Shown piece by piece: positions 7,685 to 32,040 of a stretch of 32,115 nt of DNA. The notes below the pieces were generated by a model that worked only from the letters and a program-made list of their open reading frames with translations, ran no database searches and had not been told where the DNA came from. Positions within the stretch are counted from its first letter, which is position 1. Each line of letters opens with the position of its first letter. A program made the position numbers and the translations under genes. Location: sequence record SRR31156797_12723; one strand, given 5' to 3'.

Positions 7685-7705
7685 TATGCGTTGATTTTAA
7701 ATCCG

Positions 7706-7737: not shown

Positions 7738-7859
7738 TCGCACAAAATTGGCATAAGGATCATTATAACACTCCTGGATAAAAATATCCTATTATTGCCT
7801 GCATAAAATACAATTAATGAGTTTTTTAAAAAATTTTCCATTTCAACTGCAATGAAATA

Positions 7860-7952
7860 ATGATGTAGTCATGATGTAGATACATGATAAAAATGATGTA
7901 GAGTAAATGGGGTGGGAAATTTGGAGAACGCTAATTGGAATAGCGATATTTA
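7860..7952 (+). promoter_or_regulatory. GH16 promoter with ATGATGTAG direct repeats, -33 TTTG and degenerate -7 box
   Basis: ATGATGTAG at 7860, 7871 and 7893 (11 and 22 bp apart). AAATTTGG at 7917-7924, 37 nt after the second repeat. GATATTTA lies 21 nt after TTTG. Confidence 0.7.
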
Positions 7953-7988
7953 CACAATTAAATTAAAACACAGTAAATCTTTTGTGAT

Positions 7989-9788: not shown

Positions 9789-9843
9789 GCGATAGATTTT
9801 AACCAGGGCTTGTTGAAAAACAATGAAATTATGTTGGATGTTG

Positions 9844-9987
9844 ATATTTCGGTGCGCTGCACCTTGTTCAACTATGGGGGTGACGCTTATTTTACAAATA
9901 TTTCGCGGCTCTGCCGCTTGATAGTGAATCATTTAACAGGCATGGGTAAACTATAATAATCTTGCAAGGTACAGCGCGCTGGAACAA
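9844..9987. repeat. REP-like short hairpin repeats (two direct copies plus one degenerate inverted copy)
   Basis: ATATTTC-GGTGC-GCT-GCACC-TT (9844-9865) and ATATTTC-GCGGC-TCT-GCCGC-TT (9898-9919). 9966-9987 matches the reverse complement of copy 1 at 16/22. Confidence 0.6.
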
Positions 9988-10143
9988 AAATGCTATCGGA
10001 AAAGTGCAAGGATTTCTTAATAAACCAGAAAAAGGCCATGCATTAAACTACATAGTTGTCAATGCATTATATTGATTACCAAATTGGTGCTAATTCTTCA
10101 GTAAGTCGAATTATTAGCATCTCATCATGATGTTGATCAACTA

Positions 10144-13035: not shown

Positions 13036-13125
13036 GAACCGGCTGCCAATTTTTACATATTTATGCTGTAAAAATAGTAAAATGACCTGAAGATTTGCAG
13101 CCATAAGTTAATAAGCCTATGATGG

Positions 13126-14298: not shown

Positions 14299-14363
14299 AT
14301 CTGACTTTCCTGTTTTAAATGCTCGATTTATTTTGAATTAACCTGCTTAAGAAAAATTTACAT

Positions 14364-15632: not shown

Positions 15633-15666
15633 TTGTTTTTATTGGTTATTTGTGTGTTCTTTTTTT

Positions 15667-15712
15667 AGACGCACGTCCGTGCGTCTTAACGAGAGACGCA
15701 TATCCGCGCTAC
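15667..15712. repeat. GTAG-type REP-like palindrome pair between the two permease genes
   Basis: Perfect hairpin AGACGCACG-TC-CGTGCGTCT (15667-15686) and a second decayed copy GAGAGACGCATATCCGCGCTAC (15691-15712) that reads GTAG... on the minus strand. Confidence 0.55.
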
Positions 15713-15713
15713 A

Positions 15714-16943
15714 TTACTCATCACGGAGTGCTTCTACAGGTTTGATGGCCGAAGCTTTTCGGGCAGGTACAAATCCGGCAATCGTTCCGGCAATCACAAG
15801 TATGAGGGTCGCACCTATCGCAATCCTGAAATCAACTTCGGGATTAGCAAAATAATCTGTACTTGGCAATGCACTTGAAACCAGTTCAAGTAATCCAACG
15901 CCCAAAACCAGCCCGATATATCCTGCAAACGCGGTTATCAGTACCGATTCCTGCAAAATCAGGCTGATGATCGACCAAGGTGTTGCACCCATCGACTTTC
16001 GTACGCCAATTTCCTTGGTTCGCTCTTTCACCACTATCATCATAATATTGCTCACCCCAACAATTCCGGCTATGATCGTACCGATACCAATAATCCAAAT
16101 GAAAAGCCTTATACCGGCAAAGAGGTCCATGAATTGTTGGAAATTTTCGATGGAATTGTATACAAATAAAGCACGCGGATCATCCGGATTGAACTTGTAT
16201 TTCCTGGCCAGTTCGCCCCTGGCCTCATCCAAAACGACATTGCTTTCTTCGGTATTGGCATTATCGAGCATCAGGCAAACATTTCTGATGTGGTTCCCCA
16301 TATTAAAAACACGTTGAGCAGTTGAAATGGGAATGTACACACGGGACACGTCACGATCACCTCCTGGATCATCGAACCAGCCAACCACCTTAAACGGCAC
16401 CCCGTTGATTTTGATATATTCGCCAACCGGTTCCATCTCCTTAAAGAGGGCTTCCTTTACCACTTTGCCTAAAACCACGGATTTCCTGAAATGATTTATA
16501 TCATAATCATTAATGTAACGGCCATTTGTAAGTTCAAGCGACTCAACATAATAGTACTCAGGTGTGATGGCGAAAATATCAAATGAACCGTATTCAGTTT
16601 TATAGGACAGATTCTGGCCATTAAATACAAATGTTCTGGAGGAACTTTTATCCACCTGGTCTATGTTGCCAAGCATGTTTTTATCGTCGTTTTCAAACCT
16701 GATAAAACGCCCTGCCTTCATGCCTTTGTAGGGCATACTTGTTATGCCGCTATTGATGGAGATGTAGTTAACAGCATCACCTTCAAATTCGCGTTTTACA
16801 CCATTTTCAAGGCCATATCCGGATCCAAGCAAAATGATCAGCATAAAAATTCCCCAGGCCACGCTGAACCCTGTGAGGAAGGTGCGTAGTTTGTTGCTGC
16901 GAATGGTACTAAATATTTCCTGCCATTTATCCAGGTCGAACAT
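15714..16943 (-). CDS. ABC transporter permease, MacB/FtsX family
   Basis: NKLRTFLTGFSVAWGI, GVSNIMMIVVKERTKEIGVRKSMGA, PARKASAIKPVEALRDE. Paralogue of the adjacent permease. Confidence 0.94.
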   Translation of the reverse strand: MFDLDKWQEIFSTIRSNKLRTFLTGFSVAWGIFMLIILLGSGYGLENGVKREFEGDAVNYISINSGITSMPYKGMKAGRFIRFENDDKNMLGNIDQVDKSSSRTFVFNGQNLSYKTEYGSFDIFAITPEYYYVESLELTNGRYINDYDINHFRKSVVLGKVVKEALFKEMEPVGEYIKINGVPFKVVGWFDDPGGDRDVSRVYIPISTAQRVFNMGNHIRNVCLMLDNANTEESNVVLDEARGELARKYKFNPDDPRALFVYNSIENFQQFMDLFAGIRLFIWIIGIGTIIAGIVGVSNIMMIVVKERTKEIGVRKSMGATPWSIISLILQESVLITAFAGYIGLVLGVGLLELVSSALPSTDYFANPEVDFRIAIGATLILVIAGTIAGFVPARKASAIKPVEALRDE

Positions 16944-16946
16944 GGT

Positions 16947-17663
16947 CTATGCTATTGGGGTTTCGGAATATGCGTGATGTTTACCGTTTTTGATATTGGA
17001 TTCGATTACACCATCTTTAAGCCGGATAATCCGGTTGGTGCGATGGGCAATATCATTTTCGTGGGTTACGATGAGGATTGTAATACCGAGATCGTTGATT
17101 TCCTTAAATATATCCATCACCTCATGCGATGTTTGAGAATCCAATGCTCCGGTAGGCTCATCGGCAAGTATTACTTTGGGTTTGGCCACGAGGGCCCTGG
17201 CAATAGCTATACGCTGTTTTTGGCCACCTGAAAGCTCGTTGGGATGGTGATCTGCCCATTCGCGTAAACCCATCCTTTCGAGATATTCCATGGCTATCAT
17301 GTTGCGCTTTTTCCTGCTTACTTTTTGGTAATAAAGTGGCATGGCAACATTTTCCAGCGCATTTTTAAAAGAAATGAGGTTGAACGACTGAAATACAAAA
17401 CCGATCAGCTTATTGCGGTATTGAGCAGCTTTGGTTTCGTTAAGTTTGGTGATCTCGTGATCATCCAGAAAATACTTGCCTTCATCATGATGATCGAGCA
17501 GGCCTATGACATTGAGGAGTGTGGATTTCCCGGATCCTGACGATCCCATGATAGACACCATCTCCCCTTTCTCAATCTCCAGATCGATCCCCTTTAGTAC
17601 ATGAAGACGATTGGAACCTGTTACGTAAGTTTTATGGATATTCTTCAGACTGATTATACTCAT
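16947..17663 (-). CDS. ABC transporter ATP-binding protein (LolD/MacB-type)
   Basis: Walker [19 protein letters not shown], signature LSGGQKQR, Walker [13 protein letters not shown]-loop VTHE. Confidence 0.96.
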
Positions 17664-17703
17664 GGTATGTTAGCTTGCAAAGGTTTATTCAATTTACCGC
17701 AAT

Positions 17704-17820
17704 ACCACTTTTTGTGCCAATGTATTTAACCTACTTCTTATCAATCAATTAAAAAATGAAAAATACATCCTCAGCAATAGTACTGTACGGTTGTGTACAT
17801 AGTGTGTGCGCAAACGTTCG
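17704..17820 (-). promoter_or_regulatory. Putative sigma54 promoter with IHF site and two upstream palindromic activator sites
   Basis: Minus strand TTGGCAC-AAAAA-GTGGT (17720-17704). TATCAATCAATTA (17739-17751) matches WATCAANNNNTTR. TGTAC-N6-GTACA at 17784-17799 and TGTGCG-N4-CGTTCG at 17805-17820. Confidence 0.55.
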
Positions 17821-17838
17821 AGTTGCAGACAGGTAAGT

Positions 17839-20268
17839 TTATTCGTACTTTAACGAATCCGCAGGATTGGTGGATGCAGCCCGGAAAGCCTGGAATGATA
17901 CGGTGATTACTGCAATTAAATATGAAATAATGGCCGCGTAAATAAATACTTTCCAATTTTCGATAACGCTGATACGATAAGCAAACTGGTTGAGCCACCT
18001 TTCCATGAGTATGAAGGCAATGGGCCATGCAATGAGGTTTGACAAGCTGATCCATTTGGTAAAATCTTTGGTTAGCATCAATGATAATCCACTGGCAGTG
18101 GCACCAAAAGTTTTCCGAACACCGATTTCTTTAGTACGTTGTTCAGCCAGGAAAGACGAAAGGCCGAATAAACCCAGGCAGGCAATGAATATGGCAACGA
18201 TTGAAAAATAGATGTACATTTTCGACAGCCGGACTTCGGCATTGTATAGTTCATCAAAAGTCTGGTCCATAAAACGGTACTCGAACGGGAAATCAGGTTC
18301 CAGTCGGCTCCATACATTCTCCACCTTTTCGATATATTCAGAAACATCGCCAGGCTGCAGCCTGATACAAATATTCCGCATATCCTGCTCCTGGAGATGA
18401 AACATGAAGGGTTCAACCTGTTCATGTAATGAGGTGAAATGAAAATCATTCACAACTCCTATTACTTCATAGGTTTTTGTGTTCATCGGGTCGTTTGGCC
18501 TGAACTTTTTACCCACTACTTCTTCACCCCAACCCAGTTTTTCCCAAAGTGTTTTATTGATGATAACCGCAGACGAATCGGTGCCATACTCGCGTGAAAA
18601 ATTCCGCCCCCTGATCAAGTTCATTTTCATGGTATTGATGTAATTATAATCCACACCCGCATAAAAAATGAGCCACGGGTCGTTGGCACTTTTACCTTCA
18701 GGGAAATATGCACTCCCATCTGTTCCACCACCAGGATTCATGGTTGAAGCACTCACTTCCTCAACAGCTGGCAACTGCCTTAATGCACTCATAATTTCAT
18801 GAACATTGCCACGGAGTCGTTCATTACGTAACTCAACAACCATAACGCGCTCCTTATCAAACCCCAGCCGCCTGTTTTGCATATAATCAATCTGTTGGCT
18901 GATTATACCGGTTCCGATAATCAGGAACACCGAAATCGCGAACTGAAAGACCACCAGTGCGTTACGTAAACTCACATTGCGCCGGCTTCCCCTGAAGCGG
19001 ATGTTTTTCAACACATTTACCGGACGAAACGAAGACAGGTAAAATGCCGGATAACTACCCGCAATAAAACCAACCACAACCGCCAGAAAAAGATATCTTA
19101 CGATCATACGCGGGTTGGTAAGGATGCTTCGTTCGAGTTGACGGTTAACTACATCACTAAAATCTGGCAGGAATATTTCAACCAACAGCAATGCAATAAC
19201 CAGTGATGTTAAACTCAGTATTATACTTTCGGCGATAAACTGCCTGACGAGTTGGTATTTATATGCTCCGTGCACTTTACGCACTCCAACTTCCTTTGCC
19301 CTTCCAGCTGATCGTGCTGTGGTGAGATTCATAAAATTGATGCAGGCAATTAACAGGATAAAAAGGGCTATGGCAGAAAATGTGTACACGTATGAAATAT
19401 CACTGGTAGGCGCAACTTCAGCCATCAGATTTGAATGCAGATGAATGTCTTCAACCGGCTGAAGGAAAGCATTGAATTCCATTTGAAAGTCCTTAAAAAC
19501 TTCGGGCGACTCACCGGATTCGATAATAATCTTATCCATGATCACCGTTCTGATTTTTTTTTCGAACGCTTTCACATCTGTCTCATCGGCCAGTTTAATA
19601 TAGGCATAGTAAGCCAGAGAACCCCAGTTATTTTTGGTATACCTGGGTTCCAGAATTTTCATGGAAGACCATGAAATTAATGCAGGAAAGTCGAAATGTG
19701 TATTTCCGGGAACATCTTCAATTACCGCTGAAACCTTTAAGGTGGTTTCATTATTGAATTTTAAAACCTGCCCTACCGGGTTTTCGTCATCAAAAAGCTT
19801 ACCGGCCAGGGTTTCTGTGAGGACGATGGTAAGGGGATTATAGAGCGCTGTTGACAAATCACCATAAACGGGTTCAAACTTAAAAATATCAAAAAAGGCT
19901 GAATCGGCCATCATAAGGTTGCTTTCGTAGATACGTTTATCCCCTGCTGATAAAAGCGCTTCCTGGCTGATGTTTCGCAAACGAACTGCACTTTCAACCT
20001 CCGGAAAGGATTGCTTAAGTGTGGGTGCAAGAGGGGCTGGAGAAACGGCAGCACTGAAAAAATCACCCGACATCCGGCCATCAACAGCTACACGGTATAT
20101 GCGTCCGGAATCCTGGTGAAACCGATCATAGTTCAGTTCATACTGCACATAAATCAGGATAAGAATACTTGCAGCCATTCCAATGGCCAATCCCAAAATA
20201 TTGATCAGTGTAAATGTCTGATTCCTAATTAAGTTGCGGGAAGCAATTTTTATGTAGTTTTTTATCAT
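17839..20268 (-). CDS. Large duplicated MacB/FtsX-family ABC permease
   Basis: MIKNYIKIASRNL...INILGLAIG, LQPVEDIHL, ACINFMNLTTARS..RAKEVGVRK, IACLGLFGL...EQRTKEIGVRK, NPADSLKYE. ATG 20268 preferred over 20298. Confidence 0.95.
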   Translation of the reverse strand: MIKNYIKIASRNLIRNQTFTLINILGLAIGMAASILILIYVQYELNYDRFHQDSGRIYRVAVDGRMSGDFFSAAVSPAPLAPTLKQSFPEVESAVRLRNISQEALLSAGDKRIYESNLMMADSAFFDIFKFEPVYGDLSTALYNPLTIVLTETLAGKLFDDENPVGQVLKFNNETTLKVSAVIEDVPGNTHFDFPALISWSSMKILEPRYTKNNWGSLAYYAYIKLADETDVKAFEKKIRTVIMDKIIIESGESPEVFKDFQMEFNAFLQPVEDIHLHSNLMAEVAPTSDISYVYTFSAIALFILLIACINFMNLTTARSAGRAKEVGVRKVHGAYKYQLVRQFIAESIILSLTSLVIALLLVEIFLPDFSDVVNRQLERSILTNPRMIVRYLFLAVVVGFIAGSYPAFYLSSFRPVNVLKNIRFRGSRRNVSLRNALVVFQFAISVFLIIGTGIISQQIDYMQNRRLGFDKERVMVVELRNERLRGNVHEIMSALRQLPAVEEVSASTMNPGGGTDGSAYFPEGKSANDPWLIFYAGVDYNYINTMKMNLIRGRNFSREYGTDSSAVIINKTLWEKLGWGEEVVGKKFRPNDPMNTKTYEVIGVVNDFHFTSLHEQVEPFMFHLQEQDMRNICIRLQPGDVSEYIEKVENVWSRLEPDFPFEYRFMDQTFDELYNAEVRLSKMYIYFSIVAIFIACLGLFGLSSFLAEQRTKEIGVRKTFGATASGLSLMLTKDFTKWISLSNLIAWPIAFILMERWLNQFAYRISVIENWKVFIYAAIISYLIAVITVSFQAFRAASTNPADSLKYE

Positions 20269-20293
20269 CCAGTTCGAATTTTCATTCCACCTT

Positions 20294-20410
20294 ATCATTA
20301 ATTATGCCATCCGGTATAACACATTGAAAAATTGATCATTACGAAAAATGGGCATCTCCCACTTTTGATTTTGGTTGGAGTTTAGGCAAAAAACTGTGCG
20401 AATACGAGCA
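20294..20410 (-). promoter_or_regulatory. Putative sigma54 promoter with IHF-like site and upstream palindrome
   Basis: Minus strand TGGCAT-AATTA-ATGAT (20309-20294), TTTCAATGTGTTA (20329-20317), and TGTGCG-AATA-CGAGCA at 20395-20410. Confidence 0.5.
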
Positions 20411-20708: not shown

Positions 20709-20740
20709 AAAAAAAGAAGCCCGTCGGGTTGACGGGCTTC
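20709..20740 (-). terminator. Rho-independent terminator of the three-gene operon
   Basis: On the minus strand GAAGCCCGTC-AACCC-GACGGGCTTC is followed by TTTTTTT, 36 nt after the stop at 20777. Confidence 0.9.
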
Positions 20741-20776: not shown

Positions 20777-23700
20777 TTATTCGATAACAAGCTTTTCGAT
20801 GACCAAACCTTTTTCGTTGGATGCTTTCAGGAAGTAAACTCCTTTTTCGAGTCCTGAAAGATCAATAGATGCATCACCTTTGGTAGTTGTTTCAAAAACA
20901 ACCTGACCGGCGGCATTTAAAATTTCAAGATCGTAGCCATCTGAAGCAGTGATATTGAGCTGGCCTGTAGTTGGGTTCGGGAAAGCTGTGAATGATGAGA
21001 GATCACCACCCGGAATTCCAAGTGCACCAACCTTAAGATCGGATATCAGTGAAACTGCTCCGGCTTCGAATACGCCCTGATTATAATTGCCATCAAAAGT
21101 GGCCTCAAGATGGTATACCTGGTCTTCAGAAGCTTTATAAACCATCAGGTTCATCATTTCGCCCTGGGCCAGACCATCAACAACAGCAGTTGTGAAGTCA
21201 TCACCGTTGGCAACCAATTGCAGGTTTTGATTTCCGCCTTTGTATTCGGAAATTCCGGCAATATTTCCTGAAGCGCCAAACAATCCAATATAGTCGCCGG
21301 GTTCTATATTATCAAGTGCCTTGTTATCAATCGAAATAATATGTGGATTACCAGTATTGGTTACATCCTGCCATGGTGAGTTATTTACAAATGTCTCAAC
21401 CGGTTGTGGGGAAACGGGTGCTTTTGAACTGAAGTCAACAGTCACCGGGTTCAATAAGTTGATGAGGTAACCTATGCCAGGTTCGATGGTTCCAATGGTG
21501 TTCAAACCACCTTCGGGCCAGTAAACCAGCTGGTCCTTAAGCTCGAATGCGTAAACCAGGTCATCTCCCATATCAGCAAAAATATCGGTAGGTAGTGAAA
21601 CCGGAGATAGCACAGGCATAAAGCTGATTCCCGCGGGAAGCTCAACAGTAGTTTCAGCAGGGAATCCATAGAATTCGAGCAATGTAGGTTCGATGATCTT
21701 GATCTTGTAACCTTCATACGAATTCCAGTCACCAATCAGGTTGATGTTCTGTGAAGGCCAGTAAATACCGGTATTTGAAATCAGGATCACCATATCATCT
21801 TCGATCGCTGCAAGTACAGTTTCCATAGCAGGATCTTCAGGAATGATGAAGGATGAAATTCCCAGCCACCCCACAGGAAGTTCCAGCTGCTGGTCAACTT
21901 CGCTGGCAAATGTTATCATTACAGGAATATCCATTGACGGAAGCCCCATCATGTCCATAAAACTACCCATGTACATGTAGCTGCCAAGCGGATAATCTCC
22001 GGGCACACTCAGGAACATTTCGCCATTTCCGGCAAGGAATTGCAAACCATCAACCAGCGTGAAATCCTGATCCATTTCTCCTTCAACCTTGATGTAGAAT
22101 GTAGGTTCTAGACCATTGATGATATCCCACATAATCTCTTCCCAGCCTCCAACGGCATTTTCATCAACACCACGGGCTGCCCAGTATTCGTAGAAACCAT
22201 CAGGAACTGAACCAGGATCGAGATAGAAGGGATACATATCTTCCATTAGCGGAACATTGCTAAAGGTATTTTCACCCAGGTTGAGTGCATAATGTTCAAT
22301 CAATTCATCCAACCGAACCAGATAACCATTCTGAAGGTTACCGAGGGCTGTTTCCCAAATGTTCAGATCTTCTGATACAATAAGTTCTGCTTCAAGTAGC
22401 TCAGGCCTGTAGAATGAAATCATTACCATAATTGGATTGGAAAGCAGACCACCTTCACTTTCAATTATTCCCGAGTAGACATAGTCACCGGTTGGGTAAT
22501 TACCAGGTACCTGCAGATACTGTTCACCTCCGCCGGCAAGGTATTGCAAACCATCAACAAGTGTAAACATCTGATCCTTGGCTAGATCGTCCACTTTTAT
22601 ATAGTAAGTTGGTTCGTTTCCAATAATAATTTGATACATGATTTCTTCCCAGCCTCCTACAGCATTTTCATCAACACCTTTAGCGGCCCACCATACATAA
22701 AAATCATCGGGTACAGAATTTACATCAAGGTAGAATGGATACATTCCTGTTGCCAGTGGCAAATTGGTTGCGGTTTCATCTCCCAGGTTGAAATAATAAG
22801 GATCAACATTATAATTTAACCCTTGCATATAACCACTTTCAATCGTACCGGGAACATCACTCCAATCCATTACGTTTTCCGACACTTCAAGATCGGCATA
22901 GGTAAAGAACACAAATGGGGAGCCTTCCTGGGTTATGGTAAACGTTGCTTCAGTGTTTGCAGCACCAGGTGCGCTGATGGTGATCACTGCCATCCTGTCC
23001 TGATCTGATGGGTTGGCTTCATAATTTACTGTTACCATACCATCGCCTGAACCGTCCATAACATCAGTTGTGAACCAGTTGGCACCATATGTAAGTTCCC
23101 AATCGGCACCAACCATGCCGGCAAAATCAATATCAAATGTTGTTGAGCCACTGGTGTAAGGCACAAGTACCTCAACAGGATCGATCATCATATCCGGGCT
23201 ACCCAGTTCTATATTCACACCTTTTGCCTGATCAGGTGTTTGTATGGTAACAATTCCCTGGAACAATCCCGGATCGAAAGTTAAGGTAGCCGGTGTGGTA
23301 AAAGAAACGGTTATCATTTGTGAGCCACCAGCATCAATCAGATCAACGAAAGCAGGATCGATCGTTATATCACCTGAGGGGATTACATTCCCGTTTTGGT
23401 CTGTCAAGTCAGATGCAAACAGGTCGATATCCACAAGTGGTGTTTCACCGCCTGTTTCGGTGATATCGAAGGTAAACTCATAAAATGTGCTGTATTCAAA
23501 TGGATTGAGCGACACCAGTACCGGATCCAGTTCCATTTGCGGGATTGGCGTTGGTGGCACAACAATAATCACGTTGAGACCTCCAATAGCATTCACAAAA
23601 CCGGTAGCACCAATTGGCGTAAACGGGGGAACCTCTTCCAGCAGGAAGCATTCCTCATCCGTCAACTCATCTTCAAGGTAGGTCTTATAGCAGATTTCTA

Positions 23701-25081
23701 CAGGCTCAGGATCAATGCATGTATTTTTTATCTGAATGCTATAATTTGTTGACTCCTCAACTTCCACTGTTAACTCATAAAAGTCATCGGTTGTTGAAGT
23801 CCATTCGGATAACGGGATATTGGTATACCACTGATCCCCGTCCCAACCAGCCTGGTTACCAAGCTCATCAGAGAATGAAAACTCAAAACAATCATCTGAT
23901 TTGTTCCCATAAGGGTTTGTATTCACTGACATTTTGAGCGTACTTCCAATAGGTACCGACTGTGTTTGAAGACACAATAATGCCAGTGCTGTTTCCATAT
24001 TGGCACCATAACCACCCCAGTCATCCCAGTAGTAGTTTCCATTTCCATCAGTTTTATACAAGCTTTCTACAGTGTTATACAGATATACATACCAATCACC
24101 ACCAGAGAAAATGGTTTTATTGCTGAGGGCCATGGCTTTGGAGAAACCATAAAGGTAGTAGTAATATCCGCCACCACTATAAATTTGTGAGCCGCCAATA
24201 CTTGCCGGATCGATCAATTGATAAAGTGTAAAGTTTTCCAGATAATTGAGGAATTCTGTTTTTAATGCAGAAGCACCCGCAACGCCATGACTACCTGTGA
24301 GTACTGCACCCCAAACACCAGCACATGTCATACCCTGGGGGCGGGTTCCGCATGATTGGTATCCAATGTAGGAATAGTCTCCCGAGACACATTTTCTGCC
24401 CTGGAGGTGGTTATAAACCTTTGTCCAGATATCTTTTTCAGAATAATCCAGAATATCCATAGCCAGATAAACCCATTGGTTTACCGACATATCGCCGGAA
24501 TATTCACCGGTGTAACCCCGGTTATACCGCCAGCTTACTGCATTCCAGGCTTCACTTACGTCCTGCGTATAATAGTTCATACCATTATCAACAGCGGTTT
24601 CAATATCAGTTTTTAGCTGACCGGAAATAAAACCGCCACCATCCAATGGTACTTCCAGGGCAAGTTTAAGTGAAAATATACACATGGCAGTTTCATACCC
24701 ATAATGGCTACTACTGCCGAAGGCCCCAAGATGGGTTCCACTTTGTACCTGCATTCCAAGAATGTAATCTATCGCATTTTGCACAACTGTTCCATACGTT
24801 GGGTCGTCGATATTATGGCCATTCTGCAAAAATGCCTGAAGGCATAAAGCAGAAATACCAGCGCCACCCCAGTCGCCCGGAGTCCTTGACATGGGATACA
24901 AATTGTCTGGGTCGATACTAACACCCATCTCAGGATTGTATCCCTTTGTGGTTGATTGGGAAGAAGCCAGGTAGGCCAATCCCTTGTCGATCAGGACGCT
25001 TTTTTGCGCCTGCGACTGAAAGCTCAGAAGCAGGAAACATCCTGTTAGTAAAACTAAAAGTAAACTTTTGATTTTCATCAT
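20777..25081 (-). CDS. Large T9SS-secreted multidomain protein: N-terminal prenyltransferase/squalene-oxidase-repeat (alpha/alpha barrel) domain, Ig-like and BACON domains, duplicated unknown domains, type A CTD
   Basis: Signal peptide ending SQA-Q. QW-like repeats IDKGLAYLASSQ and VQNAIDYILGMQ...GAF, plus SWRY...GDMSVNQW, GMTCAG and YYYYLYGFSKAM. BACON-like W...NW....GSGDG.VTV.Y.AN....R...ITI......TITQEG. CTD AFPNPT...NAAGQ...GVYFL...KLVIE. Start is 25081 or 25078. Confidence 0.85.
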   Translation of the reverse strand: MMKIKSLLLVLLTGCFLLLSFQSQAQKSVLIDKGLAYLASSQSTTKGYNPEMGVSIDPDNLYPMSRTPGDWGGAGISALCLQAFLQNGHNIDDPTYGTVVQNAIDYILGMQVQSGTHLGAFGSSSHYGYETAMCIFSLKLALEVPLDGGGFISGQLKTDIETAVDNGMNYYTQDVSEAWNAVSWRYNRGYTGEYSGDMSVNQWVYLAMDILDYSEKDIWTKVYNHLQGRKCVSGDYSYIGYQSCGTRPQGMTCAGVWGAVLTGSHGVAGASALKTEFLNYLENFTLYQLIDPASIGGSQIYSGGGYYYYLYGFSKAMALSNKTIFSGGDWYVYLYNTVESLYKTDGNGNYYWDDWGGYGANMETALALLCLQTQSVPIGSTLKMSVNTNPYGNKSDDCFEFSFSDELGNQAGWDGDQWYTNIPLSEWTSTTDDFYELTVEVEESTNYSIQIKNTCIDPEPVEICYKTYLEDELTDEECFLLEEVPPFTPIGATGFVNAIGGLNVIIVVPPTPIPQMELDPVLVSLNPFEYSTFYEFTFDITETGGETPLVDIDLFASDLTDQNGNVIPSGDITIDPAFVDLIDAGGSQMITVSFTTPATLTFDPGLFQGIVTIQTPDQAKGVNIELGSPDMMIDPVEVLVPYTSGSTTFDIDFAGMVGADWELTYGANWFTTDVMDGSGDGMVTVNYEANPSDQDRMAVITISAPGAANTEATFTITQEGSPFVFFTYADLEVSENVMDWSDVPGTIESGYMQGLNYNVDPYYFNLGDETATNLPLATGMYPFYLDVNSVPDDFYVWWAAKGVDENAVGGWEEIMYQIIIGNEPTYYIKVDDLAKDQMFTLVDGLQYLAGGGEQYLQVPGNYPTGDYVYSGIIESEGGLLSNPIMVMISFYRPELLEAELIVSEDLNIWETALGNLQNGYLVRLDELIEHYALNLGENTFSNVPLMEDMYPFYLDPGSVPDGFYEYWAARGVDENAVGGWEEIMWDIINGLEPTFYIKVEGEMDQDFTLVDGLQFLAGNGEMFLSVPGDYPLGSYMYMGSFMDMMGLPSMDIPVMITFASEVDQQLELPVGWLGISSFIIPEDPAMETVLAAIEDDMVILISNTGIYWPSQNINLIGDWNSYEGYKIKIIEPTLLEFYGFPAETTVELPAGISFMPVLSPVSLPTDIFADMGDDLVYAFELKDQLVYWPEGGLNTIGTIEPGIGYLINLLNPVTVDFSSKAPVSPQPVETFVNNSPWQDVTNTGNPHIISIDNKALDNIEPGDYIGLFGASGNIAGISEYKGGNQNLQLVANGDDFTTAVVDGLAQGEMMNLMVYKASEDQVYHLEATFDGNYNQGVFEAGAVSLISDLKVGALGIPGGDLSSFTAFPNPTTGQLNITASDGYDLEILNAAGQVVFETTTKGDASIDLSGLEKGVYFLKASNEKGLVIEKLVIE

Positions 25082-25119
25082 GAATCCTCCTAAATTAAAT
25101 TATAAATGGATAATGTGGG

Positions 25120-26298
25120 TTATTTAGACTTAAAAATCATCTTCCGTTTTTTCACCGTTGTGCTTTGGGGCAAACCGGCAATTTGTTCCAGTGCCAGAAT
25201 TGAATAGGCTGTAACTAATACCGGGTTATTTTCCCACCAACGGCCGTTTTCATTAATCCAGAATCCTTCCGGTTTTTGTATTTTAATGATCTGGTTGGCC
25301 AGATCGTTTCGCCAATCATGCGTGCTGCCTTCCTGGTCGGTTAAAACTTCTTCACCAAAGGCGTCCAGTGACTTGGCCATAGTTTGATAGAAATAATACA
25401 ACCCCTGGTTTCCCATTCTCGGGGTAGTTTCTACCGAATAATTCGACCTGATCCAGTTGTAGGCCTCCTGAACACGCTCATCGTCTTTTTGAACGTTTGC
25501 ATATATCAAACTCTTAAGCCCGGCATAGGTCATACTGCCATAGGAATTGGTTTCGCCCGCTTTACTTGCCCCGGGTTCATACATAAAACCACCATCATTG
25601 GCAGCGTATGCCTCAGGATTTACACTTTCCAGGTTTTGACACTTGGCCAGGAAAACCAATGCTTTATCGTAAAACAGCTTTTTATTTTGCATACGCTGTT
25701 TTTCTTCTGTTGTCAATTTTCGCTCAGGATCAACATTTTTCATATCGTCAACCGACATGGCCTCGATGGCCCACTGGAGGTTTGAAAGGTCAGGACGTTC
25801 ATCGCCACCATATCCAACACCGCCGTAAAAAGTGCTGTCGGTTGTAAAATCATCACTTTCATCAATTTGTAATCCCATCAGGAAATCCTCAGCATTTTTG
25901 ATGATTGGATCGAATTCTGCAAAATTCGCATCTTTAAATGCCATCAGGCAGATGGAAGTATTGTAATTGGGCATATCATCGAGGTAGATACCGCCATCGG
26001 GCTTTACACAACTTTTCAGGAATTCAAAACCATTTTTAATCACCGGCTCGTTGATGGTAATACTTGGATGAGCCCGTAAATAGGATGATAATACCAATGC
26101 GGTTATTGCAGGATAATGTTGCCATGAGCCATCATCCTCCTGCTGACTATGTAGCCATTTTAGGCCTTCTTTGATTGAATGGTCAATTTCCTTGGCCAGC
26201 GAAAGGTCGACTTTGGGTTCTGTAGCCTGTGCTACAGTTTGTTGAAAGGGTAAAAGAAATGCAATTAAAACCAGAAAGTAAGTAAAATATCTATTCAT
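25120..26298 (-). CDS. Exported prenyltransferase/squalene oxidase repeat (terpene cyclase/mutase-fold) protein
   Basis: Signal peptide ending TVA-Q. QW repeats GLKWLHSQQEDDGSW, GFEFLKSCVKPDGGI and IIKIQKPEGFW. Also GGVGY...PDLSNLQW, DGGFMY...YGSMTYAGL and GLYYFY. ATG 26298 (10 bp after the upstream stop) preferred over 26322. Confidence 0.85.
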   Translation of the reverse strand: MNRYFTYFLVLIAFLLPFQQTVAQATEPKVDLSLAKEIDHSIKEGLKWLHSQQEDDGSWQHYPAITALVLSSYLRAHPSITINEPVIKNGFEFLKSCVKPDGGIYLDDMPNYNTSICLMAFKDANFAEFDPIIKNAEDFLMGLQIDESDDFTTDSTFYGGVGYGGDERPDLSNLQWAIEAMSVDDMKNVDPERKLTTEEKQRMQNKKLFYDKALVFLAKCQNLESVNPEAYAANDGGFMYEPGASKAGETNSYGSMTYAGLKSLIYANVQKDDERVQEAYNWIRSNYSVETTPRMGNQGLYYFYQTMAKSLDAFGEEVLTDQEGSTHDWRNDLANQIIKIQKPEGFWINENGRWWENNPVLVTAYSILALEQIAGLPQSTTVKKRKMIFKSK

Positions 26299-26308
26299 AA
26301 AATCAAGT

Positions 26309-27040
26309 TTATAATTTCTCAATAATCAATTTGACACTTTTTCCAACAGTAAGCTGTGCTGCCTTATTCACATAGAAAAGTTCATCGTTGAACTTGGATT
26401 GAGTATTCAATTCCATCATGGCTACCGGGTCATGATAAGTGGCTATCATGGTAACATCCGGCTCAACCATTACATAGCCACTATTATGTGTTGCTGCACC
26501 GCGAAACAACCATGTGGACGGCTTTAGTGTTTGTTTTATCGACTCATCATAAATGAAATCTGCCAGTGGCTTTTTTATGGCTTTCCCATCTTTTTCTAAA
26601 GTAAGGAAAATCTTAACGGCGTCGCCATCAGTTTCAATACTGCTAAACTGATCATTATTGTTGATTTTAGAAGGATCATCAGGAACCTCATTCACAGGAT
26701 CGAGGCCCAACAATAAAAGTGCAGTCTGAAATTCGAGTGGTGAAATGTCTGTAACCAGTAAACTTTCATGAACTTTGCCTTCTTTTCTGCACAGTACCAC
26801 TTCAATGAGGCCTTCACTCATGTTTATCCTGCAGGGAATTTCAACGGTACCAAGCGAGGTATTGATCGTCATTTCACTCAGTTGATACAAATCTTCACCT
26901 ACTTTTTTCAGGATATCTTCAGGGTTTTCCTGTTGTGCTATACCCTTTTCAGAAATAATCAATAAGGGTATTACAAACAATAATATAAGCAGCGATTTGA
27001 AAATGACTTTAAAATTTCCTAGCGTTAAATCTTTTTGCAT
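26309..27040 (-). CDS. Exported protein, probably YdjY-like domain
   Basis: Hydrophobic N-terminus ending GIA-Q. Segment LIEVVLCRKEGKVHESLLVTD...FQTALLLLGL and WLFRG resemble YdjY-domain proteins as I recall them (not verified by search). ATG 27040 preferred because the ORF-track start 27082 lies inside the -7 box. Confidence 0.6.
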   Translation of the reverse strand: MQKDLTLGNFKVIFKSLLILLFVIPLLIISEKGIAQQENPEDILKKVGEDLYQLSEMTINTSLGTVEIPCRINMSEGLIEVVLCRKEGKVHESLLVTDISPLEFQTALLLLGLDPVNEVPDDPSKINNNDQFSSIETDGDAVKIFLTLEKDGKAIKKPLADFIYDESIKQTLKPSTWLFRGAATHNSGYVMVEPDVTMIATYHDPVAMMELNTQSKFNDELFYVNKAAQLTVGKSVKLIIEKL

Positions 27041-27079
27041 GTTAATGAAATTGGTACTATAATTATATACAATAACGAG

Positions 27080-27112
27080 CAAAGCTAAGAAAAAAAAACT
27101 TTCATACCTAAA
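27080..27112 (-). promoter_or_regulatory. Housekeeping-type promoter for the three-gene operon
   Basis: Minus strand TTTA-N21-TAGCTTTG with a perfect TAnnTTTG -7 box at 27087-27080. Confidence 0.6.
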
Positions 27113-27272
27113 TATCAGGACTATGTTAACAGAATTTTTATAACTTTTTATAAAATATCTAAAATACGATTACATATAGCAAATAAATACCTATATAAAT
27201 GTGTTTATCGCATTTATCTAAAAATATCCGGATTTCAGAAAAAAGAAAATCTGTTACAGGGTTGCTGTTATC

Positions 27273-27303
27273 TTTAATTTTAATGAAATTTCATTTATTT
27301 TTG
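27273..27303 (+). promoter_or_regulatory. Housekeeping-type promoter for TonB-dependent receptor 1
   Basis: TTTA-N19-TATTTTTG (27296-27303), ending 45 nt before ATG 27349. Confidence 0.55.
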
Positions 27304-27348
27304 CCCGCAAACAGAAACAAAGTATTGCAAAAATATAAAGACTGGAAT

Positions 27349-29535
27349 ATGAAAAAAAGCACACTCATTTCATCAATTCTATTTGTATTCACAATTTTCA
27401 CAGTGGCTGGTTTAAATGCTCAGGAATCAATACCTGGGCAGGATTCGTTACGACTGATCACCGTGGATGAGGTGGTGATTACTGCCAATCGTTACGACAA
27501 TAAGATCATCAACTCAGGTGCATCTGTTGAGGTTATCAGGGCTAAAGAAATCAACAAACTCCCGGCCCGAAACTTTTCTGACATGCTTGGATTTATTCCG
27601 GGCTTATATTCAACATCCACAGATGGAATGGGATTAAATCCTCAAATCAGCCTGAGAGGATTTTATGGCGGAGGTGAAGCAGAATATCTTACCGTTTTAA
27701 TTGATGGCATTCCGGTGAACGATCTTGAAACAGGGCTCGTTAGCTGGAACCAGATACCCGTGAACCAGATTAAACAGGTTGAACTGCTCAAGGGCGGGTC
27801 ATCAACACTCTATGGCGATGCTGCAATGGGCGGTGTACTCAACATCCGAACCTTGAAAAAAGACCCCGAATTCACGAATGCAAACATTGGATATGGATCA
27901 TACAACACATACAACATAGGGGCTTCGCATGGTGGAAACCTGGGAAAAGGAACCTATGAAATCTATGCAAACAACAGCGCTACAGATGGCTTTAGAGACC
28001 ACAGTAAATGGAATTCGATAAATTTTGGTGGGCGCGTAAAACTCCCCGTTAGCCGGAATTCAACGCTTGCTTTTAGCACATATAATCAAATTCTGGATTC
28101 GGAAGAACCTGGTTACCTGACTGAGGCTGATTTGAATAACAACAGGGAACAATCTTTACCCTATTTCCAGGAAGATGGTAAGGATTTCCAGAAATACCTG
28201 GCCAGCGTAAGTTTCAATAGTAAAGTAAACAAAAATGCGGACCTGGGGATAAACCTAAGTTATCAGCACAAAAACACCGAACAACACCGGACTTTCGGGC
28301 AATATCCAAACATTCTCATCAATTCAGGTGGAAATATTTTCCCGAATGGGATATACGATACTACAATTTATGGCAACACCAAACGCCGCGATCTTACCAG
28401 CGACCAGATAAACCTCGCCATCAGGATTGTGAGCAGGATTCCTGAAATCGGCGCGACGATAACCGGTGGCATCGAAACAGATTATGGTGCTTACCAGAAC
28501 GAATACAGAGACATTTTCAGGGGCTTTGATTATGACTATGCAAGCAACTATCAGCCCTGGGATTCGCTGGACACCAAAGGTGGTGGTTACAGATGGAAAT
28601 CAGCAGCATATATCAACGGAGAGATTAAGTTGGCCAGGCCATTAACACTTTTAGCTGGTCTCCGTTACGACCTGATTTCTGATGATTTTGAAGGTGATAT
28701 ACCAGATACAACATTCAGTAAAAACAATACAGCCCTCAGTCCAAAAGTTGCCTTAAATCTGAGTACAGGTGAAACTGATAAATATGCCGGAAGTATTTAC
28801 CTGAGCTACAGTCAGGCTTTTAAAGCACCCACAATCGATCAGCGCTCCGATTTTAAGCAACTGCACTATTTCGTGTTTTTCGAGGCCGGGCCAACTTATA
28901 TTCCCATGGAGATCAAAGCAAATCCTTTTTCCAACCCTGACCTGAAACCGCAAAAGAGCACGAATTACGAACTGGGAACTTACCAGTATTATCAATTTTC
29001 TGATAATTTCAGTGGAGAAGTAAATATTGCGGGGTATTTTATAACGGTGAAAGATGAGATAGATTTTGACCTCATGACCCAGCAATACAAAAACATTATC
29101 GATACCGAACACACCGGGCTGGAATCCAGCATCAGGCTGAATATTCATAAAAACTGGTCAGGGTTCCTCAGCTACAACTTTGCTGAAGTGAAATTTGCTG
29201 ATGGTGAAAATGAAGGTAAAATATTAAAAGGCATTCCAAAAAATGTTTATATGGCTGGTCTTTCCTATGCACCTCAAAGAGGATTGGGCGGTACACTGAT
29301 TTTAAACGGTGCCGATGGAATTTACCTGGATGACGCAAATACTGAGGAGTTGGACGGCCATGTAGTTATGAATGCCCGGCTGGATTACGCACTTGACTTT
29401 GCAACCATATACCTTGATGTAAATAATATCTTCAATACTTCCTATAACTCCACAGGCTATATGCTGGATGGCCAGAAGTACTTATATCCGGCCATGGGAA
29501 GGTTTTTGAAGGCTGGTGTTAACTTCCGTTTTTAA
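27349..29535 (+). CDS. TonB-dependent receptor (non-SusC; cobalamin/heme/siderophore-type architecture)
   Basis: Signal peptide MKKSTL...LNA-Q, TonB box DEVVITANR, plug ISLRGF...VLIDGIPVN...QVELLKGGSSTLYGDAAMGGVLNI, FKAPT...NPDLKPQ, VNNIFN and terminal F. Start moved from 27199 to 27349. Confidence 0.93.
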   Translation: MKKSTLISSILFVFTIFTVAGLNAQESIPGQDSLRLITVDEVVITANRYDNKIINSGASVEVIRAKEINKLPARNFSDMLGFIPGLYSTSTDGMGLNPQISLRGFYGGGEAEYLTVLIDGIPVNDLETGLVSWNQIPVNQIKQVELLKGGSSTLYGDAAMGGVLNIRTLKKDPEFTNANIGYGSYNTYNIGASHGGNLGKGTYEIYANNSATDGFRDHSKWNSINFGGRVKLPVSRNSTLAFSTYNQILDSEEPGYLTEADLNNNREQSLPYFQEDGKDFQKYLASVSFNSKVNKNADLGINLSYQHKNTEQHRTFGQYPNILINSGGNIFPNGIYDTTIYGNTKRRDLTSDQINLAIRIVSRIPEIGATITGGIETDYGAYQNEYRDIFRGFDYDYASNYQPWDSLDTKGGGYRWKSAAYINGEIKLARPLTLLAGLRYDLISDDFEGDIPDTTFSKNNTALSPKVALNLSTGETDKYAGSIYLSYSQAFKAPTIDQRSDFKQLHYFVFFEAGPTYIPMEIKANPFSNPDLKPQKSTNYELGTYQYYQFSDNFSGEVNIAGYFITVKDEIDFDLMTQQYKNIIDTEHTGLESSIRLNIHKNWSGFLSYNFAEVKFADGENEGKILKGIPKNVYMAGLSYAPQRGLGGTLILNGADGIYLDDANTEELDGHVVMNARLDYALDFATIYLDVNNIFNTSYNSTGYMLDGQKYLYPAMGRFLKAGVNFRF

Positions 29536-29784
29536 TTTGCATAATTTTACACTAAAGCATTTTTGCAATCACGGCTTTTAATTGCTGAATTCCTTTAGCA
29601 GATTCCGATAAACAAACCCGTGATTGGTTTTGGTATTAAAGACAATCCTTTGGAGACCCGGCCACTTTTTTTTCAAAACAACGTTATAGAATTTCAATTT
29701 TTTTTTAAATTCGCTATCGAATTATGAGTCCATTTAAGGCTGAGTCGTAATGAGTACACAAGTTCACCTATAAACTCCTGGCTT

Positions 29785-32040
29785 ATGAAAAAGTATTTTA
29801 CATTATTGATTTTATATACCTTAATGTATGGGATGAGTTATGGACAGGTAGTTACCGGAACCATCTACGATGCAAAATTCGACAGGCCGGTTGCAAACGC
29901 CAGCATTCAGCTTGTTGAGACAGACCAGGGTGATTATACCGACAATTCAGGACAATTCGAAATTGAGAATGTAAGTCCCGGTACATACATACTCAGGGTT
30001 TCGCTAATAGGGTATCTGGTTGATGAAAAAGAAGTTGAAGTCACCAATACCGGAATCACGGGGTATCAGGTATATCTGCAGCCCACAAACATAACCCTGA
30101 ACAACGAATTTGTGATTACTGCCCGTCGTGTTGAGACCAGTGATTTTTCTTCTCCCGAAGCCATTACGGTCCTCAACAGCAAACAGCTTAAGCAGGAATC
30201 AGCCCGTTCAACTCCTGAAGCCCTCGAAGGAGCAACCGGTGTGTATGTACAAAAAACAAATCATGGAGGCGGGTCTCCGTTTATCAGGGGCCTTACAGGA
30301 AACCAAAACCTGCTCATGATCGACGGCATCAGGCTCAATAACGCCACTTACCGCTATGGCCCCAATCAATACCTCAACACGGTAGACCCCCGGACTTTGA
30401 ACACCATTGACGTTGTGAGGGGCGCCGGGTCCATCCTTTACGGAAGCGATGCCATGGGAGGGGTTGTGAACCTGATCACCAAAAAACCTGCTTATTCGCA
30501 TGATGGATTTAAAGTTGGCGGAAATATCTTTGGCAAATGGATGAACGATGATATGCAAAAAACAGGAAGAGGCGAGATTAACATGGCCGGGAAAAATGTA
30601 GCCTTTACCGGAGGATTTACCTACAACGACTTTGGAGATATTGTGGGCGGCGATACCACCGGTACGCAAACACCTACAGGATATCAGGAATACGCAGGAA
30701 ACATGAAACTACGTATGCGCTTGTCATCAAACCAGGAACTAACGGTCGCATATCAATACGACAAACAATCAGATGTGCCCCGGTACGATAAAGTGATAGC
30801 CAACTACGACAAATATCATTTCGATCCACAAATCAGGCAACTGGGTTATGCAAGGTTAAAATCGAATTACGAAAACAAGTGGTTCCGTCAAGTTACTATC
30901 ACAGGATCATATAATATATCTGACGAAACCAGGATCAAGCAAAAAGAAGGTTCAGCAAAGGTTTCCAACGAACACGACCTGGTAAAAACTTACGGTGCAA
31001 CCGTTGAAGTTAATTCGATGCCGGGGAGGAACTGGAATTTTGTTTCCGGAGTTGAGTACTATAATGATAAAGTAAACAGCGAAACAACCGACAATGAAGA
31101 TGGCAACATCACCGAGAAACGCGGATACTACCCTGATGGAGCAACATCTTCAAGTATAGCCGTTTACACTTCTCATACTGTGGATGTAAAGAAATTTTCA
31201 TTTATTCTGGGTGGCCGTTTTAATGCTTACCAGATCAAAGCTGAAGATCCCACCTTTGAAGACGTTGATGTTAGCCCGTCGGCAATTGTTGGAAGTAGTT
31301 CGATTATATACCATCTTAATCAAAACTATAATTTTATGGGTTCTGTTTATTCTGCTTTCAGGGCTCCAAACCTGAATGACCTCAGTAGTTTCGGAAGTTT
31401 TAACGCTGGCATAGAGGTACCAAACCCCGACCTTGCCCCGGAAAAATCCCTCAATGCTGAATTGGGTGTAAAAGTTAAATATGATAAATTTTCCGGGTCG
31501 GTATTCGCATTCCACAGCAAATTAACCGACCTGATCAGCCGTGTTGAAACAACTTACAACGGACATGATTCCATTGATGGCGAAAAAGTTTATACCAAGG
31601 ATAATTTTGCAGAATCCTTTATCCAGGGACTTGAAGCCGAACTGCAATTTGAAATGACCTCCAATTTTACCGCATATGGAAATTTTACCTATACCTACGG
31701 ACAAAATGAAACCAGGGATGAACCCATGCGCCGCATTCCACCACTCAATGGAAAGCTTGGAGTTTATTATCAACACAGCTCAGGACTCTGGGGTAAGCTG
31801 GAATGGTTGGCAGCTGGCAAACAAGACAGGCTGGCCAGCGGCGACATCAGCGATAGCAGGATTCCTGATGGCGGTACTCCGGCATGGAACAGGCTGGATT
31901 TAAGGGCTGGTTACTCCTGGAATTGGATAACCGTGACAGCTGGCCTAAACAACATTATGGATGAAGATTACCGGATGCATGGCTCTGGAATAAATGGCTA
32001 TGGACGATGTCTCTGGCTTGCCCTTCAGGTGGGATTTTAA
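29785..32040 (+). CDS. TonB-dependent receptor with N-terminal carboxypeptidase-regulatory-like domain
   Basis: Signal peptide, VTGTIYD...G.YTD..GQFEI..V.PGTY, EFVITARR, QKTNHGGGSPFIRG, VVRGAGSILYGSDAMGGVVN, FRAPN...NPDLAPE, LNNIMDEDY and terminal F. Confidence 0.94.
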   Translation: MKKYFTLLILYTLMYGMSYGQVVTGTIYDAKFDRPVANASIQLVETDQGDYTDNSGQFEIENVSPGTYILRVSLIGYLVDEKEVEVTNTGITGYQVYLQPTNITLNNEFVITARRVETSDFSSPEAITVLNSKQLKQESARSTPEALEGATGVYVQKTNHGGGSPFIRGLTGNQNLLMIDGIRLNNATYRYGPNQYLNTVDPRTLNTIDVVRGAGSILYGSDAMGGVVNLITKKPAYSHDGFKVGGNIFGKWMNDDMQKTGRGEINMAGKNVAFTGGFTYNDFGDIVGGDTTGTQTPTGYQEYAGNMKLRMRLSSNQELTVAYQYDKQSDVPRYDKVIANYDKYHFDPQIRQLGYARLKSNYENKWFRQVTITGSYNISDETRIKQKEGSAKVSNEHDLVKTYGATVEVNSMPGRNWNFVSGVEYYNDKVNSETTDNEDGNITEKRGYYPDGATSSSIAVYTSHTVDVKKFSFILGGRFNAYQIKAEDPTFEDVDVSPSAIVGSSSIIYHLNQNYNFMGSVYSAFRAPNLNDLSSFGSFNAGIEVPNPDLAPEKSLNAELGVKVKYDKFSGSVFAFHSKLTDLISRVETTYNGHDSIDGEKVYTKDNFAESFIQGLEAELQFEMTSNFTAYGNFTYTYGQNETRDEPMRRIPPLNGKLGVYYQHSSGLWGKLEWLAAGKQDRLASGDISDSRIPDGGTPAWNRLDLRAGYSWNWITVTAGLNNIMDEDYRMHGSGINGYGRCLWLALQVGF

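Follow-up and report, generated by a model that had tools for sequence, protein, structure and literature searches.

A five-gene cell-envelope locus organised round a YdjY-toroid unit and associated with two TonB-dependent receptors: a candidate uptake system for a lipid-like molecule

The window considered here is the whole 32,115 nucleotide stretch of sequence record SRR31156797_12723 and all coordinates are positions within it unless a related locus is named. It carries five neighbouring genes, three on the minus strand and two divergent from them on the plus strand, and our best reading is that they constitute a cell-envelope system at whose centre stands a conserved unit of the periplasm, a YdjY-domain protein together with an exported α/α-toroid of terpene-cyclase fold, hereafter the free toroid. 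The third gene of the minus strand encodes a giant protein in which a diverged toroid is combined with a sorting domain of the type IX secretion system (T9SS), and the two plus-strand genes encode TonB-dependent receptors, TBDR1 and TBDR2. Since the five genes recur together in distant bacteria they probably represent an undescribed uptake system for a lipid-like small molecule. The more specific proposal, TonB-dependent capture and uptake of a small molecule bearing an isoprenoid group, is the explanation we prefer, with a confidence that falls a little short of even.

The YdjY-toroid unit and its surface paralogue

Related loci were examined as the best 80 (L001-L080) of 596 confirmed genome loci. 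A YdjY hidden Markov model matches 36 of these, namely 36 of the 42 closest (L001-L042) and none of the 38 in L043-L080, which are mostly from Planctomycetota; tblastn recovers YdjY in 34 of the 80. Wherever the model matches, YdjY is encoded on the strand of the toroid (36 of 36 loci), and within 130 bp of it in 31 cases. The closest loci come from metagenome-assembled genomes (MAGs) of Lentimicrobiaceae and Bacteroidales, and the taxa named in record titles are Bacteroidota, Ignavibacteria, Cloacimonadota, Calditrichota, Krumholzibacteriia, Planctomycetota, Armatimonadota, Syntrophales and Desulfobacteraceae. The two proteins also occur as a single chain, a squalene-cyclase-type domain being present in five of ten long YdjY-bearing representatives that were scanned. 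One such protein (P0331) has a YdjY domain (residues 39-245) followed by a toroid (285-661) with 45% identity to the free-toroid family (E 1e-82), and another (P0241) has the reverse order with the toroid before YdjY. Because such natural fusions exist, and given the synteny, YdjY and toroid are identified from genome sequences as one conserved unit. The sequence-only reading that preceded this analysis had placed the three minus-strand genes on an equal footing. The data instead give a conserved core of YdjY and toroid, with the T9SS paralogue and the receptors as additions in some lineages.

The YdjY-like identity proposed for the first of these proteins is secure, with NF040466 matched at E 3.4e-27 and 95.3 bits over residues 72-255 of the long open reading frame, against a curated cut-off of 50, and the homologues bear precomputed PF27149 assignments. 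An N-terminal hydrophobic signal or anchor segment precedes a β-rich domain and the AlphaFold2 model has a predicted local distance difference test score (pLDDT) of 90.7. A sequence search of the PDB gave a best E value of 1 and Foldseek gave no match at E ≤ 0.001, so no solved relative was found; the best VIA structural match is a DUF371 protein (Z 6.1) and the Atlas returned YdjY clusters only. The family numbers 4406 cluster representatives at E ≤ 0.001, and its invariant residues include a G-K-x-H-E-S stretch. The literature passages on YdjY that were consulted assign no function to the Escherichia coli protein. We note that YdjY domains are also fused to ExbD/TolR (P0269), to the catalytic domain of an APP1-type phosphatidate phosphatase (P0341) and to NPCBM (P0309), partners that hint at a lipid-phosphate and Ton/Tol-motor context. 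In an anammox-type locus (L029, 5076-5963) a PF04060 Fe-S plus 4Fe-4S dicluster protein is encoded directly upstream of YdjY, its cluster (c33) being seen also in L026 and L039, and E. coli YdjY is itself annotated as a 4Fe-4S ferredoxin-type protein.

The free toroid is a member of a YdjY-linked subfamily annotated 'terpene cyclase/mutase family protein' and has at least 6325 homologues. The match to PF13243, the C-terminal domain of squalene-hopene cyclase (SHC), is weak (E 2e-8), and in a profile search SHC is the sole significant match (E 2.3e-11), with pectate lyase at E 0.054 and no glycoside hydrolase (GH) family returned. The AlphaFold2 model (pLDDT 84.7) is an α/α6 toroid, for which the best VIA structural matches are SHC (1gsz, Z 26.3, rmsd 2.9, 279 residues), the myxobacterial single-domain cyclase 8paj (Z 25.7) and drimenyl diphosphate synthase (Z 25.6). 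The fold of prenyltransferase β-subunits is matched as well (Foldseek 1n94_B, E 3.7e-6; VIA 2zir_B, Z 20.1); a gene for a helical-repeat α-subunit was not seen in the locus maps, no search having been aimed at one. GH76 enzymes and sugar epimerases match at Z 22-24, and with cellobiose 2-epimerases and related enzymes included the range is Z 20-24. As these lie close behind the cyclases the fold alone leaves the chemistry undecided, and the sequence profile is what decides toward a cyclase type because SHC alone is significant.

Could the locus then be an unconventional glycan-utilisation system, with toroids acting as glycoside hydrolases, lyases or epimerases? The structural proximity of GH76 and related enzymes, a BACON domain in the giant protein and a β-glucan-type polysaccharide utilisation locus (PUL) in the same window would agree with this. 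The profile result argues against it, as do receptors that are not SusC-type and have no adjacent SusD, and no carbohydrate-active enzyme is conserved in the related loci, so that we consider a glycan system highly unlikely. The earlier reading had named membership of a characterised family, for instance a glycoside hydrolase or pectate lyase, as the structural outcome that would undo it, and the profile values place the barrels elsewhere.

At the position of the catalytic acid HMMER aligns P-D-V-D-D of SHC with P-D-L-S-N of the family, at moderate posterior probability, and the latter is the first of the motifs to which the sequence-only reading had drawn attention. Among 16 aligned sequences S172 and N173 are invariant whilst the aspartate preceding them varies, and about 80 columns in all are invariant. 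By alignment, the free-toroid family keeps the class II cyclase architecture and does not keep the DxDD general acid. Extracytoplasmic prenyl transfer or modification had been offered as an alternative to uptake; such transfer, or cyclisation, is not favoured because this motif is not conserved. A signal-like hydrophobic segment is evident by eye at the N-terminus of all 16 members.

The toroid of the giant protein is a distant paralogue. BLASTP detects the relationship weakly (E 0.016, 22% identity over 179 residues). A profile of the giant's first 393 residues and three orthologues, compared by hhalign with that of the free toroid, aligns the two (P0001, residues 31-382; P0002, residues 42-383) over 287 columns, at a probability of 95.6% and E 1.1e-8. 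The parallel motifs from which a relationship had been proposed are real, since all six quoted are present in the translations and hhalign pairs them likewise. In this alignment the giant's toroid lacks the invariant polar residues of the free toroid. The predicted sorting domain also stands (TIGR04183, 51.9 bits against a cut-off of 23). Residues 401-1400 are very acidic, with 0-4 lysine or arginine and 10-22 aspartate plus glutamate per 100 residues. For this middle part of the protein the Atlas returned only unnamed clusters (≤ 0.85), and a module of about 162 residues present there as a tandem duplicate matched no Pfam family and no named Atlas cluster. The BACON domain is found also in the giant orthologues of L004 and L005. 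Twelve loci of the Fibrobacteres-Chlorobi-Bacteroidetes group encode a second, large toroid protein after the free one, and of seven such proteins scanned five pass the Por_Secre_tail/T9SS sorting cut-off. In the close relative L004 further large T9SS cargo proteins flank the locus (627-4142 and 14911-19455; CARDB or CarboxypepD_reg plus a sorting domain), and CARDB is seen likewise in toroid-YdjY fusion proteins.

Two receptors linked to the unit

TBDR1 and TBDR2 both contain the PF07715 Plug and PF00593 barrel domains. They score below all equivalog cut-offs, the best scores being against subfamilies of haem, siderophore and B12 receptors, with values for the BtuB equivalog TIGR01779 of 144 and 128 bits against a cut-off of 599.7. 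TBDR1 falls short of the SusC/RagA signature (TIGR04057, 17.3 against 46.2 bits), for which TBDR2 is not listed. The statement that no SusD gene accompanies the receptors is correct for the window, where the only SusD lies at 733-2217 and there is none within 25 kb, the window ending 75 bp after TBDR2; none was seen near the receptors in L004, L005 and L094 either. The receptor subfamilies might be taken to indicate capture of a cofactor or metal chelate, such as B12, haem or a non-isoprenoid siderophore, with toroids serving as transcobalamin-like binders, and the α domain of transcobalamin is indeed an α/α barrel. We judge this highly improbable. The receptor scores are far under the curated cut-offs, Rfam has no match, to a cobalamin riboswitch or to any other family, either across the window at the gathering threshold or, with the limit relaxed to E ≤ 1, across spacer and receptors (26900-29900), and transcobalamin chains do not appear in the 50 best structural matches of the toroid, which does not exclude them.

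Linkage of the receptors to the other genes had been drawn from adjacency in the window. It now extends to other genomes, where orthologues of both recur beside YdjY and toroid in several gene orders. Want of such co-occurrence had been named beforehand as a ground for rejecting the earlier reading, and on this point the outcome favours it. Genes of the same BLAST cluster as the receptors occur in 10 of the 80 loci and in two of three Bacteroidota loci added by means of the YdjY profile; all six close Bacteroidales loci with enough flanking sequence (L003-L006, L008 and L094) have them. The identity of TBDR1 to its orthologues is 31% in L021 and 40-61% in the others (L003-L006, L008); orthologues of TBDR2 are found in L003-L005, L008, L010, L019, L021, L023, L057, L093 and L094. 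Counting full-length counterparts of either receptor, identities are 40-68% in Bacteroidales and 31-33% in the Ignavibacteria locus. In Bacteroidota and Ignavibacteriota the pair thus has orthologues of both receptors as neighbours, and TBDR2-type receptors adjoin it also in one locus each of Melioribacteraceae, Syntrophales (Thermodesulfobacteriota) and Verrucomicrobiota. The divergent arrangement of the window is shared by L004, L005 and L094. L008 has the order TBDR1-TBDR2-YdjY-toroid-giant on one strand, L021 has YdjY-TBDR1-TBDR2-toroid-giant and L093 has YdjY-TBDR2-toroid, in both cases with the receptor genes on the strand of the pair. In each of five genomes a single one of 26-57 candidates matches TBDR2 at E ≤ 1e-40, and it is the one in this locus.

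How closely the receptors and the pair belong together bears on an alternative in which YdjY and toroid are a general periplasmic lipid-handling module, acting for example on polyprenyl-phosphate-linked or other membrane lipid intermediates, and the receptors and T9SS protein are a lineage-specific addition with unrelated cargo. Seventy of the 80 loci have no receptors, and in anammox bacteria the pair adjoins LptF/G and Lnt genes. E. coli ydjY is flanked by two DedA-family genes, and the fusions of YdjY to the APP1-type phosphatase domain and to ExbD would also be at home in such a module. DedA proteins are reported, in the portions of the literature consulted, to be undecaprenyl-phosphate flippases and lipid transporters (PMC12893004, PMC10193950). 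The pair is absent from most sampled Bacteroidota, which is unexpected for a housekeeping role, and the one-per-genome orthologue of TBDR2 stands between the YdjY and toroid genes of L021 and of L093, an arrangement that speaks for a common task. On balance a general lipid module seems to us rather unlikely.

The ligand and points for and against an uptake role

Uptake of an isoprenoid-bearing molecule would proceed in three steps. The giant protein, exported by the T9SS, would present its diverged toroid at the cell surface or beyond it and there catch a hydrophobic, probably isoprenoid-carrying molecule. The two dedicated receptors would bring that molecule across the outer membrane to the periplasm, where the free toroid with YdjY would accept or process it. 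No inner-membrane transporter was found to be conserved in the locus, and this would fit a membrane-soluble ligand.

Some indication of the ligand comes from ebo genes. The YdjY-toroid pair abuts ebo-like genes in four of the 80 loci, L023, L032, L027 and L035. TatD and UbiA types are present in all four and the other types are variable; L023 and L032 carry TatD, UbiA, phosphodiesterase, dehydroquinate synthase (DHQS)-like and TIM-barrel types with an O-methyltransferase, and L027 and L035 carry subsets of these. L023 has in addition a TBDR2-type receptor and a two-component system, whilst in a Bacteroidota genome (G094) YdjY-TBDR2-toroid and a complete ebo cluster lie on different contigs. 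According to a 2026 preprint the ebo genes are assigned to the biosynthesis of thallusin and saccharoquinoline, thallusin forms Fe(III) complexes, and a dedicated cyclase for the drimane ring is not known (10.64898/2026.05.21.724671). The words YdjY, TonB, squalene and periplasm do not occur in the main text of that preprint, and the passages searched of the 2016 ebo paper do not mention YdjY or toroid neighbours. The earlier proposal of a non-sugar, isoprenoid-type ligand passed along an outside-to-inside relay gains from this adjacency with respect to the type of ligand; the relay itself we infer.

The most concrete candidate would be an ebo-pathway meroterpenoid of the thallusin or saccharoquinoline type, possibly as its Fe(III) complex, with importing organisms that would mostly be non-producers. 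In its most specific form the proposal would make the locus a system dedicated to the piracy of ebo meroterpenoids of thallusin type, or of the Fe(III) complexes of these, captured by the T9SS toroid, imported by the receptors and accepted by YdjY and the free toroid, and in producers the same unit would perform or assist an unexplained periplasmic step of the ebo pathway. We hold so specific a form to be unlikely. If true, it would be the first case of a bacterium with a receptor and an uptake route for an algal morphogen, and YdjY would gain its first function.

The ebo association can also be read in terms of catalysis, the toroids being enzymes outside the cytoplasm that modify a terpenoid by cyclisation, hydration or other means. 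They would supply the missing late ebo-type step or the first step of terpenoid catabolism, and the receptors would import substrate or product. The location of the pair within ebo operons and the very strong conservation of the free toroid are compatible with this, as is the presence amongst the top structural matches of drimenyl diphosphate synthase and the single-domain cyclases 8paj and MstE, and the drimane-ring cyclase, as reported above, is still wanting. The missing general acid counts against the idea, as does the surface toroid without the invariant polar residues of its paralogue, and EboB is unmatched in most genomes that carry the pair. We regard an enzymatic role of this kind as improbable.

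Several observations weigh against our preferred uptake of an isoprenoid-bearing molecule. The ebo link covers a minority of the pair-bearing genomes, because an EboB match is found in only five of 38, four of them being the adjacent cases; the other 33 have none, and as these are MAGs absence is not proven. In five receptor-bearing genomes tested, also MAGs, EboE was found in none and an EboC-like match, a weak one, in one. In Bacteroidota the system is rare, YdjY being found in two of 201 genomes of a phylum sample and four of 301 of an order sample. Elsewhere the pair adjoins genes for LptF/G, Lnt, an Fe-S protein, MqnA/D-like proteins and MoxR/DUF58/BatA/VWA proteins, unrelated envelope and housekeeping neighbours that suggest a more general role. 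The conservation of the free toroid looks more like that of an enzyme or of a component of an obligate complex than of a passive binder, and the Z values of sugar-active enzymes, given above, come near those of the cyclases. Finally, in a quick SH-aLRT tree, from which fragments below 550 residues (L003, L006, L019 and L057) were left out, the TBDR1 clade has support of 99, and the clade of the window TBDR2 is sister (support 97) to receptors of genomes G144 and G044, which have no YdjY match in the same genome sample. The G044 receptor (L103, 85-15667) is accompanied by SusC, SusD, two β-propeller/phosphoesterase proteins, HD, HAD, DUF5690 and an FAD-oxidase. Since the sister receptors come from genomes without a YdjY match, the YdjY-linked receptors do not appear to form one exclusive clade and the receptor family would therefore serve other substrates too.

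The G044-type locus, conserved in appearance, resembles those for scavenging of organophosphorus compounds, phosphonate or phosphoester, and the G144 locus (L102) has a similar layout as judged by open reading frames alone. MoxR (AAA_3), DUF58, BatA, VWA or DUF4175 genes adjoin the pair in certain loci, amongst them ones from Planctomycetota and Armatimonadota (L027, 3782-9814; L038, 565-4464; L022). DHQS-type matches in five of five genomes were not counted as ebo genes; they have approximately 28-36% identity in frames of 341-372 residues, and are probably aroB because identity is low and no other ebo gene occurs in their loci of about 3.7 kb. Menaquinone auxotrophy was considered and dropped, the UbiA family being present in five of five genomes.

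A comparison with known systems helps to define what is new. Surface-binder and TonB-dependent transporter systems of Bacteroidota include BtuG-BtuB, HmuY-HmuR and SusCD. Like them, the present locus encodes a candidate exported or surface binder next to a TonB-dependent receptor and includes a partner in the periplasm. It differs in that the candidate binders are terpene-cyclase-type toroids, the surface copy being a T9SS cargo and no lipoprotein such as SusD, BtuG or HmuY, and in having two receptors with no SusD, riboswitch or conserved inner-membrane transporter. With class II terpene cyclases (SHC, 8paj/8pak, MstE and drimenyl diphosphate synthase; Z 22-26) the free toroid shares, beyond the SHC profile match, the α/α toroid and QW-like repeats. 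Enzymes of the SHC/OSC type dip into the membrane from the cytoplasmic side and have no signal peptide, whereas the free-toroid family would be exported, to judge from its signal-like segment, is single-domain, has P-D-L-S-N in place of DxDD and is partnered with YdjY. Linalool dehydratase-isomerase is a periplasmic α/α-toroid enzyme of terpenoid metabolism, and an exported toroid acting on an isoprenoid is what we propose for the free toroid; that enzyme does not figure in the 50 best structural matches, and the profile search showed no relation in sequence. The likeness to eboA-F clusters lies in the four loci where the pair stands directly beside ebo-type genes, and the difference in the window itself, in which tblastn with six ebo-type proteins finds no ebo gene, and in the EboB-negative majority of pair-bearing genomes. 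The ydjXYZ-ynjABCD operon of E. coli similarly places a YdjY-domain protein in an envelope or lipid context between its DedA-family genes, but has no toroid, TonB-dependent receptor or T9SS protein. E. coli YdjY aligns with the window protein over its whole length (hhalign, 173 columns), weakly, at E 3e-4 and a probability of 40%.

No description of a YdjY-toroid-receptor system was found in literature on YdjY, PF27149 or squalene-oxidase-repeat names. YdjY and the exported toroids are both large families without known function, and the data tie the unit they form to TonB-dependent import, T9SS surface display and, in some genomes, the ebo pathway. The locus gives testable candidates for late ebo steps and for perception of the ebo product by other bacteria, in the form of a binder or receptor set that would serve an isoprenoid signal or an iron carrier, and it opens a way to the function of E. 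coli ydjY.

Layout of the locus and neighbouring genes

The coordinates of genes, domains and signals are collected in Table 1. Open reading frames of the minus strand are 26309-27082, 25120-26322 and 20777-25081; those of the plus strand are 27199-29535 and 29785-32040. ATG starts were adopted at 27040 for YdjY, 26298 for the free toroid and 27349 for TBDR1, choices supported by matching homologue lengths of 392 residues for the toroid, 241-246 for YdjY and 733-746 for TBDR1. Computed from these coordinates, the three co-oriented genes have gaps of 10 and 38 bp and lie 308 bp from the divergent receptors, exactly as first described. The strong terminator ascribed to the three-gene unit is likewise present as a hairpin with a T run. 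Signal peptides were called by eye from the translations. A sigma-70 scan of the window gave 24 sites where 27 were expected, with a consensus that does not cover Bacteroidota promoters. Words resembling TAnnTTTG, which we take to be the Bacteroidota promoter motif, can be picked out by eye upstream of both divergent units and are weak evidence in AT-rich DNA.

Table 1. Positions of the genes, protein domains and other features of the locus in the window
Feature	Position	Strand	Details
YdjY-domain gene	26309..27040	-	243 aa; NF040466, PF27149 on homologues
Free exported α/α-toroid gene	25120..26298	-	392 aa, signal peptide; PF13243
T9SS cargo giant gene	20777..25081	-	1434 aa; signal peptide, diverged toroid, acidic middle, sorting domain
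Toroid domain of giant, paralogue of free toroid	23936..25009	-	About residues 25-382; hhalign
BACON domain	22925..23101	-	Residues 661-719; PF13004, E 2.9e-7, 30.8 bits
Tandem duplicate, ~162-aa module	21908..22897	-	Residues 729-890 and 898-1058; BLASTP 56% identity, E 2e-58
T9SS type A C-terminal sorting domain	20783..20983	-	Residues 1367-1433; TIGR04183, PF18962 51.1 bits
TBDR1 gene	27349..29535	+	Frame open from 27199; start chosen by signal peptide and homologue lengths
TBDR2 gene	29785..32040	+	N-terminal CarboxypepD_reg-like domain, Plug, barrel
Divergent intergenic region, AT-rich	27041..27348	.	308 bp; sequence inspection; Rfam scan negative
Terminator-like hairpin ending three-gene unit	20716..20740	-	10 pairs, 7 G-C, then T run; 37 bp past stop

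The host of the window, a Bacteroidales bacterium, is assigned to the Bacteroidota because the remainder of the sequence consists of the β-glucan-type PUL and a MacB/ABC efflux set. The latter is MacAB-like, occupies 13210-20298 on the same strand as the three-gene unit and comprises an HlyD-type adaptor, two MacB-type permeases and an ABC ATPase; it includes an 819-residue double MacB_PCD/FtsX protein and is not conserved next to the locus in relatives. The PUL spans 1-13104. It begins with a fragment of a PKD-domain protein (1-720), followed by the SusD gene mentioned above and SusC (2228-5272), a GH3 enzyme (5612-7684) and a GH16-like protein (7989-9788), each with a T9SS tail, and a Y_Y_Y/LuxR regulator (10144-13104).

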